The notes below the pieces were generated by a model. That model did not search any database and was not told the origin of the DNA. It saw nothing but the letters and a program-made list of their open reading frames with translations. The position numbers and the translations under genes were made by a program. Of a stretch of DNA of 40,875 nt, positions 1 to 40,875 are shown one piece after another (position 1 is the stretch's first letter; each line of letters starts with the position of its first letter). Source of the stretch: Escherichia phage vB_EcoP-R1; sequence record OQ703102.1; one strand, 5' to 3'.

Positions 1-394
1 GACGGGTCAGAATGTCGCGATACAGCGCCTGACGGTGCGTTTCGTCATGGGTCGCCAGCACTTCGCCGATCTCTTTATCAATCAGCGGCTTGTCGGCTAA
101 ACCTTGCTGTGCCTGGAAGTCAGCGTGCGACGGTACGCGCATTGAACTCAGGAAGGCGTGTGGATCGTATGGCGCGCCCCAGGTGCGGTGGAAAATCATG
201 CCAAAACGACCGTCGCGCTGACGAGCATAGATACTGCTCTCTTCTTCGCCAATCAGCGAGACATCTGCGCCAATCTGGCGCATATCAGCCTGAATGATTT
301 CCGCCATCGATTTGCTTAACGCATCGGTGCCGATGAACGACAGTTCAATGCGCAGCGGCTGACCATTTTTCTCGCGGATGTCTTTGCCAGCAGG
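1..394 (-). CDS. nikA: Internal fragment of a periplasmic solute-binding protein (SBP family 5, nickel-binding NikA-like); truncated by the window edge and by the junction with phage DNA
   Basis: Minus-strand frame open across 1-394, translating ...PAGKDIREKNGQPLRIELSFIGTDALSK...RDGRFGMIFHRTWGAPYDPHAFLSSMRVPSHADFQAQQGLADKPLIDKEIGEVLATHDETHRQALYRDILTR, which matches my recollection of E. coli NikA; GC-rich enterobacterial codon usage; no start or stop inside the window. The six-frame track misses it because it runs off the window. Confidence 0.55.
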
Positions 395-461
395 ATCCAT
401 ACGGATTGGGCGTACAGCAAGTAATAAACTTTATCTTTCAATTGAATAGGAGAATTATCAT

Positions 462-1511
462 ATGGCAAACGTTCCGGGTCAGAAATTAGGTACAGACCAA
501 GGTAAAGGCAAATCTGGTTCCGACGCTCTGGCGTTGTTCCTGAAGGTCTTTGCTGGCGAAGTCCTGACCGCATTCACTCGCCGCTCTGTAACTGCTGACA
601 AGCATATTGTCCGTACAATTCAGAACGGTAAGTCTGCTCAGTTCCCGGTCATGGGTCGCACCTCTGGTGTGTATCTGGCTCCGGGTGAGCGACTGTCCGA
701 TAAGCGCAAAGGTATCAAACATACCGAGAAAGTAATTACCATTGATGGTCTGCTGACTGCCGATGTGATGATTTTCGACATTGAAGACGCGATGAACCAC
801 TATGACGTGGCTGGTGAGTATTCCAACCAGTTGGGTGAAGCTCTGGCTATCGCTGCTGATGGTGCGGTTCTGGCTGAAACGGCTCTCCTGTGTAACCTCC
901 CAGCTGCATCCAACGAGAACATCGCGGGTCTGGGCACTGCGTCCGTACTGGAAGTTGGTAAGAAAGCTGACCTCAACACCCCGGCTAAACTGGGCGAAGC
1001 AATCATCGGTCAACTGACCATCGCTCGTGCGAAGCTGACCTCCAACTACGTTCCTGCTGGCGACCGTTATTTCTATACAACGCCGGACAACTACTCTGCA
1101 ATCCTCGCGGCTCTGATGCCGAACGCTGCTAACTATGCTGCGCTGATTGATCCAGAGACTGGTAACATCCGTAACGTGATGGGCTTCGTTGTTGTTGAAG
1201 TTCCGCATCTGGTACAGGGTGGCGCTGGTGAGACCCGTGGTGCCGATGGTATCTCTATCGCTTCCGGCCAGAAACACGCATTCCCAGCAACTGCTACTGG
1301 CGACGTTAAAGTTGCTATGGATAACGTTGTGGGTCTGTTCTCTCACCGTTCTGCTGTGGGTACTGTGAAGCTGCGTGACTTGGCGCTGGAACGTGACCGT
1401 GACGTCGATGCTCAGGGCGACCTGATTGTCGGTAAATACGCTATGGGTCACGGTGGTCTGCGTCCTGAAGCGGCGGGTGCGCTGGTTTTCACAGCAGCGT
1501 CAGCGGTCTAA
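462..1511 (+). CDS. 10A: Major capsid protein (T7 gp10A homolog)
   Basis: 349 aa; MANVPGQKLGTDQGKGK...LALFLKVFAGEVLTAF...KHTEKVITIDGLLTADV...DIEDAMNHYDV...KYAMGHGGLRPEAAG closely parallels T7 gp10A; RBS AGGAG 8-10 nt upstream. Confidence 0.95.
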   Translation: MANVPGQKLGTDQGKGKSGSDALALFLKVFAGEVLTAFTRRSVTADKHIVRTIQNGKSAQFPVMGRTSGVYLAPGERLSDKRKGIKHTEKVITIDGLLTADVMIFDIEDAMNHYDVAGEYSNQLGEALAIAADGAVLAETALLCNLPAASNENIAGLGTASVLEVGKKADLNTPAKLGEAIIGQLTIARAKLTSNYVPAGDRYFYTTPDNYSAILAALMPNAANYAALIDPETGNIRNVMGFVVVEVPHLVQGGAGETRGADGISIASGQKHAFPATATGDVKVAMDNVVGLFSHRSAVGTVKLRDLALERDRDVDAQGDLIVGKYAMGHGGLRPEAAGALVFTAASAV

Positions 1512-1774
1512 CGACCTTTAAGGCCCTCTCTACAGAGGGTCCTACCTTAGAGACGTACAGTTCTACGGTGGGGACCAGCCTGAAGGTTGACTTACCTGAG
1601 CTTTCAGACGTGACCGATTGGTCGCTGCTTGAGGTGACTACGCCTGATGGTGTTAGCTACTCCCGTAGAACCAACAGTCTCTACTTCAAGGCCACCTCTG
1701 GCGCGGAAGGTCTGGTGATTGTTGGATATGACGGTTCGCCTGTGCGTTCCTTCAACGTATCTTTCACAAACTAA
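462..1774 (+). CDS. 10B: Minor capsid protein 10B, predicted product of a programmed -1 ribosomal frameshift near the end of 10A
   Basis: Slippery heptamer G GTT TTC at 1484-1490, 20 nt before the 10A stop; the -1 frame is open from 1490 to a TAA at 1772-1774 (the track ORF 1568..1774 is part of this frame). Same arrangement as T7 10A/10B. Confidence 0.45.
1484..1490 (+). promoter_or_regulatory. Putative -1 frameshift slippery site GGTTTTC
   Basis: Heptamer identical to the T7 gene 10 frameshift site as I recall it; sits at the end of the capsid gene with an open -1 frame downstream. Confidence 0.45.
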
Positions 1775-1780
1775 TTGAAA

Positions 1781-1817
1781 CCCCTTGGGTGCCTTCGGGT
1801 GCTTGAGGGGTTTTTTG
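1781..1817 (+). terminator. Phage RNAP terminator (T-phi-like) after the capsid gene
   Basis: CCCCTTGGGTGCCTTCGGGTGCTTGAGGGG hairpin followed by TTTTTTG; position and sequence resemble T7 T-phi. Confidence 0.6.
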
Positions 1818-39760: not shown

Positions 39761-40605
39761 ATGTCTCAATCAGTTTATGCCGAGTTCGGCGTTAGCTCTA
39801 ATGCAATCACTGGTTCCGTTGAGGACCTGAACGAACACCAGAAGTCTATGCTTGAACAGGACGTAGCTGTTCGTGATGGCGACGACGCTATTACTTTCAA
39901 GCAACTGGAAGCCGAAAACGAAGAGGCGACCGAAGAAGACGAGAACGTCGAAGAGACTGAAGGTGAAGAAGACCACGAGTCCGATGACGAAGAGTCTGAG
40001 ACCGATGGTGAGCAGCCTGAGTTCATCGAACTGGGTGATGCACCAAAAGAGCTGACCGAAAGTGTCACCGCTCTGGATGAAAACGAAGCTGCATTCGACG
40101 ACATGGTGTCTTCTGCTGTAGAAGCTGGCAAGGTCACTGCTGATGAAATTACCGCTATCAAGGCTGAATACGCCAAGGACGGTAAGCTGTCTGACGCATC
40201 CTACGCTAAGTTGCAGGAAGCAGGTTACACCAAGCGTTTCGTAGATTCGTTTGTCCGTGGTCAGGAAGCTCTTGCTGAACAGTATGCTGCTGGTGTGGTT
40301 CGCTACGCTGGTGGTGCTGAACAGTTTAATCGCATCCTGTCACACCTTGAGTCCAACGACCCGTCAACTCGTGAAGCACTGGAAGCTGCTATCGTTCGTA
40401 AGGACATTGCGACTACCAAAGCTCTGCTGAATCTGGCTGGCAAGACTCTGGGTAAAGCTGTAGGTGTTAAACCTCAGCGAACCATCACCACTCAGGCTAA
40501 ACCTGTGGTCGCACCTAAGGCTCCTCAGACCGAAGCATTCAGCTCCAAGGCTGACATGATTAAGGCTATGAGTGACCCGCGATACCTGCGTGACGCTAAG
40601 TACAC
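39761..40605 (+). CDS. 9: Scaffolding protein (gp9 homolog), 3-prime truncated and fused in-frame to non-phage sequence
   Basis: MSQSVYAEFGVSSNAITGSVEDL...VRDGDDAI..., acidic EEDE-rich region, ...FVRGQEALAEQY...AMSDPRY parallel T7 gp9; no stop codon, and after about 40605 the translation no longer looks like gp9. Confidence 0.85.
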
Positions 40606-40843
40606 GGTGTTTAGTTTTCAGGCTGGCGCACTGGCAGGTGTGCAAATTGTTTCACAAGCTGCAAAACGCAGTGCCGATGGCGAGCTGCTGTTAGCGACCC
40701 GTAACCGCTTGAGTAGTGTTGTTCCACTGTCGCCAGACGCCTGGCAAATGTTGAGCGCGCCGTTGCGCCAGCCGGGCATTGTGGCTTTGCGGGAATATTT
40801 ACGCCAGCGTCCCCCCGCCTGCATACGACCACTCAACCAGGTC
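40606..40843 (+). other. Unidentified non-phage, GC-rich coding-like fragment (probable bacterial chromosomal DNA) joined in-frame to gene 9
   Basis: Open + frame ...LAGVQIVSQAAKRSADGELLLATRNRLSSVVPLSPDAWQMLSAPLRQPGIVALREYLRQRP... with GC content clearly higher than the phage; I cannot assign it from sequence alone. Confidence 0.3.
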
Positions 40844-40875
40844 AGATCGGAAGAGCGTCGTGTAGGGAAAGAGTG
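40844..40875 (+). other. Illumina TruSeq adapter sequence (AGATCGGAAGAGCGTCGTGTAGGGAAAGAGTG)
   Basis: Exact 32-nt match to the standard Illumina adapter read-through sequence at the extreme 3-prime end of the window. Confidence 0.95.

Follow-up and report, generated by a model that had tools for sequence, protein, structure and literature searches.

The window analysed here is the whole 40,875-nt sequence of Escherichia phage vB_EcoP-R1 (OQ703102.1), a K1F-like podophage (Autographiviridae, Studiervirinae, Kayfunavirus); K1F is the type species of the genus Kayfunavirus. Between positions 420 and 1830, the window shows 93-96.5% nucleotide identity with many Kayfunavirus genomes (e.g. IME177, pO2 and Peacock). 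Gene 10A, encoding the major capsid protein in the zero frame, occupies positions 462-1511 of the plus strand and specifies 349 amino acids (36.3 kDa) that match the Pfam family Gp10A-like (PF21703) with an E-value of 1e-104; its nucleotide identity with the capsid genes of other Kayfunavirus members is 93-96%. The gene ends with a TAA at 1509-1511, and the predicted C-terminal peptide of 10A is YAMGHGGLRPEAAGALVFTAASAV. Solved relatives of gene 10A, T7 gp10A among them, are present in the PDB. A very close relative is chain I of entry 9vvq ('Minor capsid protein', 347 aa; E-value = 9e-217), the match of which covers residues 1-344 only.

Both ends of the window (1-397 and 40605-40875) are non-phage. 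E. coli nikA accounts for positions 1-394 (99.7%, minus strand) and E. coli yehQ for positions 40605-40847 (98.8%), and the final 33 bases come from an Illumina adapter (AGATCGGAAGAGCGTCGTGTAGGGAAAGAGTG). The phage sequence starts again at about 398. By comparison with IME177, this is roughly 40 nt past the position of the phi10 promoter, and the window therefore lacks the 3' end of gene 9, this promoter and part of the leader of gene 10. Such ends look like an artefact of assembly (a chimera made from a circularly permuted genome) rather than a biological feature.

Near the 3' end of gene 10A, at 1484-1490 of the plus strand, lies the slippery heptamer G GTT TTC, which includes the codons of Val342 and Phe343; the shift site of T7 gene 10 has the same sequence in the same phase. 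The initial annotation had placed this heptamer 20 nt before the 10A stop; the heptamer is indeed present, the distance was approximate, and 18 nt (six codons) separate it from the TAA. GGTTTTC is found once in the whole window, both strands included, against 3.9 occurrences expected by chance, so that the count by itself is not significant. The -1 frame is closed on its 5' side by a TGA at 1466-1468, opens at 1469, 15 nt upstream of the heptamer, and continues to a TAA at 1772-1774. Because the -1 frame is open only in 1469-1774, a shift is confined to the 43 nt of 1469-1511 on the plus strand, the sole stretch in which this frame has opened before the 10A frame has ended, and GGTTTTC is the only slippery motif within it. 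The -1 frame, previously described as open for 95 codons up to 1774, contains 96 sense codons counted from the GGT at 1484, 94 of which specify new residues after Phe343, and the description was thus essentially right. When the segment 1512-1774 was subjected to mononucleotide shuffling, 2.5% of the shuffled sequences kept the -1 frame open, and stops in the -1 frame inside the genes of this phage occur about once per 11 codons. The open -1 frame alone is moderately unusual, and the decisive support comes from comparison with related phages.

The stop codon of the -1 frame lies 2 nt upstream of a hairpin at 1777-1816 (plus strand), in agreement with the earlier statement that the extension ends right before a Tphi-like terminator. 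This intrinsic terminator consists of a 17-bp stem, a UUCG loop and a run of six T residues, with CCCC at 1781-1784 and a folding energy of -27.4 kcal/mol (z = -4.3), and it aligns with T7 Tphi (AACCCCTTGGG...CTTGAGGGGTTTTTTG) and with the terminators of CR8 and Peacock. Between the terminator and gene 11, a small ORF on the plus strand (1836-1925), preceded by GTGAGGA at 1823-1829, would encode a 29-aa hydrophobic peptide, MFYLLTALGLFVSFWAIILLTGPCSPYDR. The corresponding segment is absent from Peacock, in which gene 11 directly follows the terminator, and a deletion in one related locus (L009) has joined this ORF to the 10B extension.

The product predicted from a -1 shift at the heptamer, 10B, has 437 amino acids (about 45.8 kDa) and is composed of residues 1-343 of 10A and the 94 new residues (HSSVSG...SFTN). 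The extension is encoded at 1490-1774 of the plus strand by 94 codons plus the TAA, with C1490 being read twice, and the predicted peptide at the junction of 10A and the extension is YAMGHGGLRPEAAGALVFHSSVSGLTTFK. Structure prediction divides the extension into a flexible linker of about 18 residues (1490-1543, plus strand) and an Ig-like beta-sandwich of about 75 residues with seven strands (1544-1771, plus strand), referred to here as the type B module of 10B. Disorder is predicted over residues 1-16 of the extension, and the AlphaFold2 pLDDT is below 50 for residues 1-4 and 6-16. The model of the domain itself is a confident one; the predicted fold is a sandwich of two sheets that structurally resembles Ig-like domains, and its fold matches include the C-terminal domain of lambda gpV.

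A Pfam search (E-values up to 1) with the extension and with the full 10B gave only the Gp10A-like family at residues 60-342, with no match in the extension, and a PDB sequence-profile search with the extension found nothing; no solved structure in the PDB, including 9vvq chain I, covers a type B extension. The sole family match of the extension is phrog_7473, of 'unknown function'. When 1.8 billion representatives were searched exhaustively with a profile, only 13 matches (representative clusters) were obtained, some of them short stand-alone ORF calls and the others weak similarities to parts of unrelated repeat proteins (BACON, He_PIG and Big_1/invasin); no in-frame fusion to a capsid domain was found among the 1.8 billion representatives, and no wider family was established. 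As a lead, the C-terminal motif LYFKA..G..V.V.YDGSPV may be likened to the Big_1/invasin repeat of one of the profile matches. Membership of the extension in Big_2 (PF02368) was rejected, because there was no Pfam match and the hhalign probability against T3-type extensions was 0.3%. Identity with the T7/K1F tail was likewise rejected, since the motif LTP(A/Q)QKAARTRAANKA of that tail is absent and the extension aligns with type B sequences alone. Thus, the larger capsid product proposed in the initial annotation is retained as a predicted 437-aa fusion, but its extension is not homologous to the 10B tail of T7.

The locus was compared with 80 loci from IMG/VR that have a capsid protein (numbered with the prefix L) and with those of Peacock, U8, IME177, T3, CR8 and T7. 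Three unrelated types of gene 10 -1 extension, A, B and C, were recognized. Type A, the T7/K1F tail, comprises 47-59 aa in the -1 frame from the heptamer, contains ...LTPQQKAARTRAANKA... without any Pfam domain, and is found in T7 and K1F-like loci. Type B, the type of vB_EcoP-R1, comprises 93-98 aa from the heptamer (...DVTDWS...RRTNSLYFK...YDGS...) and exists in 28 loci, including CR8; a tblastn search recovered it from 454 phage records, chiefly those of Klebsiella, Escherichia, Salmonella, Enterobacter and Pectobacterium phages. Type C, the T3 type, is a Pfam Big_2 domain, and its slip site is C CCA AAG in T3, A AAG near the stop in most other loci, GGTTTTT in two and GGTTTTC in one.

The codons of the Val-Phe pair were compared over 83 related loci. 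All 48 loci with a type A or type B extension have GTT-TTC, and the preceding G is kept in 46 of them. The remaining two (L024 and L025) have C GTT TTC, with the Leu codon CTC instead of CTG, and retain an intact type B extension, so that the G with which the T7 heptamer starts is not strictly required. Among the 20 Val-Phe loci without a recognizable extension, 17 have GTC, GTA or GTG followed by TTC, and the three with GTT-TTC are those carrying truncated or deleted versions of an extension. The association between GTT-TTC and the presence of an extension gives a Fisher p of 2.5e-13, a value that is inflated by shared ancestry. This codon pattern is what selection on the synonymous sites of the heptamer would produce if it acted solely where a -1 product exists.

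To estimate the selective constraint downstream of the 10A stop, the 28 type B sequences were aligned by codon. Read in the -1 frame, this part gave pairwise dN/dS values of 0.15-0.40, as against 1.2-3.7 for the same nucleotides in either of the remaining frames, and all indels between type B subgroups are multiples of three; as judged from these alignments, purifying selection acts on the extension solely in the -1 frame. Such frame-specific selection, extending over more than three divergent subgroups, is hard to reconcile with a chance or relic origin of the open frame and the heptamer, in which no product would be expressed in vB_EcoP-R1. GGTTTTC is not over-represented in the window, a small proportion of shuffled sequences do stay open, and truncated variants of the extension exist in L009, L010 and L045, all of which would fit such an origin; however, the occurrence of the domain in several hundred phage records and its confident structural model make it scarcely credible. 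Transcriptional slippage was also rejected, as the T run of the heptamer is only four long and such a run is too short for it.

The downstream ORF (1568-1774, 68 aa with a GTG start) might instead be an independent small gene, with gene 10 remaining unshifted. Gene callers have listed it as a 'hypothetical protein' in many genomes, most GenBank records and PHROGs treat it in this way, and phrog_7473 is a family of its own. However, GTG 1568, the earliest possible start codon (ATG, GTG or TTG) in the open -1 frame, has no Shine-Dalgarno match upstream; the candidate starts lie at differing codons across the subgroups, almost none of them with a Shine-Dalgarno sequence, and the gene calls for this ORF in databases vary from 54 to 87 aa. 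The 19 codons from the 10A stop to GTG 1568 (TTFKALSTEGPTLETYSST) are under purifying selection no less than the domain is, with a pooled pN/pS of 0.24 versus 0.34, and beta-strand 1 of the predicted sandwich would be encoded upstream of the GTG. Moreover, in every case the ORF occupies the -1 frame of gene 10 and extends back to the heptamer without a stop, and the synonymous sites of the heptamer co-vary with the presence of an extension. An independent gene therefore seems very unlikely. Because 1512-1567 contains no start codon in vB_EcoP-R1, this part would be translated only by ribosomes arriving from gene 10. These could do so without any frameshift if the extension were a separate protein made by termination-reinitiation at the 10A stop (translational coupling), and an ATG does occur at or near this stop in some relatives (TAATG in L006, 2 nt after the stop in CR8 and 11 nt after it in L019-L021). 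In vB_EcoP-R1, however, ACG is found there, with no ATG, GTG or TTG in frame before 1568, and reinitiation leaves the conservation of GTT-TTC unexplained; the CR8 record, in addition, gives mass spectrometry matches to a 10B coding sequence predicted as a -1 frameshift product. Reinitiation as the source of the extension is thus highly improbable for vB_EcoP-R1. In those genomes with an ATG at the 10A stop (L006, proteins P0001-P0003 and CR8), the start codon suggests that translational coupling might yield the module as a free protein as well.

In vB_EcoP-R1, we infer with high confidence that 10B arises when ribosomes shift by -1 at 1484-1490, which would add the linker and the Ig-like domain to a minority of capsid subunits. 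The conserved programmed -1 frameshift suggested in the initial annotation is well supported by sequence comparison, in that the heptamer and its phase are those of T7, GTT-TTC is invariant wherever a type A or B extension exists, selection is specific to the -1 frame, the Tphi homologue is present, and joined coding sequences are annotated in Peacock and CR8. Most ribosomes would translate 10A to the TAA at 1509-1511, and on G GUU UUC a minority would slip back by one nucleotide, so that tRNA-Val would pair with GGU instead of GUU and tRNA-Phe with UUU instead of UUC. The shifted ribosomes would next read the CAC at 1490 and would then continue in the -1 frame to the TAA at 1772-1774. By analogy with T7, the efficiency may be about 10%. 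T7-type capsid proteins expose their C-terminus at the surface, and so co-assembled 10B would show the Ig-like domain on the head. Once displayed on the surface, the domain could plausibly bind surface or mucus glycans weakly, as has been proposed for other phage Ig-like domains.

According to PMC5009743, frameshifting in T7 also depends on distant 3' sequences of an unusual kind, among them a CCCC that lies in the terminator, more than 200 nt downstream. In vB_EcoP-R1, the Tphi homologue has its CCCC 291 nt downstream of the heptamer. A closer candidate for a stimulatory element is a branched stem-loop at 1497-1556 (plus strand), with a 6-nt spacer from the heptamer and a folding energy of -23.7 kcal/mol (z = -2.84). 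In a structure scan of 130 windows over gene 10, the windows around the slip site were among the most structured, and the 70 nt downstream of the heptamer folded better than shuffled sequences in six of eight lineages, including T7 (z = -2.15) and CR8 (z = -3.39); in the K1F-like locus L004, these 70 nt were not more stable than shuffles. The outer stem of 1497-1556 is broken in the closest relatives, and the consensus RNA structure across subgroups was negligible (-4 kcal/mol, RNAalifold, 18 type B sequences). The local stem-loop is thus a candidate stimulator only. A long-range helix in the minimum-free-energy fold (1487-1508 with 1612-1634) is kept only in the subgroup to which vB_EcoP-R1 itself belongs, and with one compensatory pair in 21, covariation gave this helix no support.

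The heptamer GGTTTTC of T7 gene 10 is an experimentally established -1 site (X_XX = G_GU), at which a shift of about 10% leads to 10B, as related in PMC5009743 and PMC1635266 after Condron, Atkins and Gesteland (1991). In T7, the identical heptamer in the identical phase encodes a Val-Phe pair near the C-terminus of the homologous capsid protein, and the -1 ORF likewise ends just before the homologous Tphi terminator with its CCCC. The two phages differ in the distance from the heptamer to the stop, 9 nt in T7 and 18 nt in vB_EcoP-R1, and in the extension, which in T7 is the shorter, non-Ig type A tail (...LTPAQEAARTRAANKARKEAELAA), whereas that of vB_EcoP-R1 has 94 aa, is predicted to be Ig-like and shows no sequence similarity to it.

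Closer parallels are found in the relatives with type B extensions. Peacock, which is 93.5% identical to vB_EcoP-R1 in this region, annotates exactly the joined 437-aa product as a 'minor capsid protein' arising from a -1 frameshift. The 'minor capsid proteins' of CR8, Peacock and Klebsiella and Pectobacterium phages share the heptamer, the type B extension (46-96% identity) and the position of the stop before the terminator, and show no essential difference from the arrangement described here. The GenBank record of CR8 lists 10B with 'matches in mass spectrometry analysis', a statement found in the GenBank note alone; the CR8 genome announcement does not mention the frameshift (PMC4038870). 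For Kvp1, mass spectrometry demonstrated a 10B that results from -1 shifting at TTTTCA (PMC2579914). In the Escherichia phage pO2, an extension 100% identical to that of vB_EcoP-R1 is annotated as a separate hypothetical protein.

Gene 10b of K1F, a phage of the same genus, also has the same heptamer and gives a minor capsid protein by a -1 shift, which adds 44 triplets (PMC6277420), and it has been used for the display of GFP and EGF (PMC6277420, PMC10367136). The K1F tail is of the T7-like type A (cf. L004, L007 and L023), whereas that of vB_EcoP-R1 is of the unrelated type B, and therefore two alternative modules circulate within one genus. The capsid proteins of L004, L005, L007, L022, L023 and L028 are 97-98% identical to that of vB_EcoP-R1 and carry either the 50-aa T7/K1F tail or the 96-aa Ig-like module (both counted from the heptamer). 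The presence of either module on capsids so similar within a single genus points to a recent exchange of cassettes exactly at the end of gene 10.

The gene 10 product of T3 also receives an Ig-like domain of similar size, through a -1 frameshift at the end of the gene (PMC5009743; also discussed in PMC13320782). The shift of T3 takes place on C CCA AAG (lysyl site) and its domain is a Big_2 domain (E-value = 5e-10), whereas the domain of vB_EcoP-R1 has no Pfam match. The T3-type loci (T3 itself, L084, at 1863-2192, and L039, L050, L052, L056, L058, L062, L064 and L067) have a Big_2 extension in the -1 frame but no GGTTTTC, and share A AAG (C CCA AAG in T3) one or two codons upstream of the 10A stop; therefore, a different slip chemistry serves the same architecture. 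The addition of Ig-like domains to phage structural proteins by frameshifting has been described by Fraser et al. (2006), as cited in PMC5009743 and PMC13320782. In such cases, including lambda gpV, a small C-terminal beta-sandwich is likewise placed on a virion protein, and recoding delivers it to a subset of the subunits.

The T7-type capsid frameshift with a type B extension is already known and annotated in close relatives, as the joined coding sequence of Peacock, the mass spectrometry note for CR8, the mass spectrometry of Kvp1, the use of K1F g10b and the extension of T3 indicate. The modest addition made here is that vB_EcoP-R1 and much of its genus carry a third module, a distinct domain that is predicted to be Ig-like, beside the non-Ig tail of T7 and the Big_2 domain of T3; the understanding of frameshifting itself is unchanged. 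More tentatively, the extension may represent a distinct Ig-like capsid-display family without a Pfam model, with phrog_7473 as its sole PHROG, and may be one of at least three unrelated C-terminal modules (the T7/K1F tail, the Big_2 domain of T3 and type B) that are swapped as cassettes at the gene 10 recoding site of T7-family phages, a proposal to which we give somewhat less than even weight. If the domain mediates adherence to glycans, mucus or host surfaces, the swapping of modules would provide a second locus of host or niche adaptation besides the tail fibres.

In most of the approximately 450 phage records with a type B extension, it is annotated as a stand-alone hypothetical gene. The 68-aa 'hypothetical protein' downstream of the capsid gene in many Kayfunavirus, Przondovirus and related phages would accordingly be better annotated as the C-terminal part of 10B. 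For engineering, the flexible linker followed by a dispensable-looking Ig-like domain would offer a natural, tolerated site for display or labelling, comparable with that of K1F g10b. A further variant occurs in L059 and L077 (IMG/VR 3300034349_000001 and 3300034127_000003), in which GGTTTTT at the same position is followed by a -1 extension of 477 codons. This extension begins with Big_2-like repeats, and would be a very large capsid decoration to be delivered by frameshifting.
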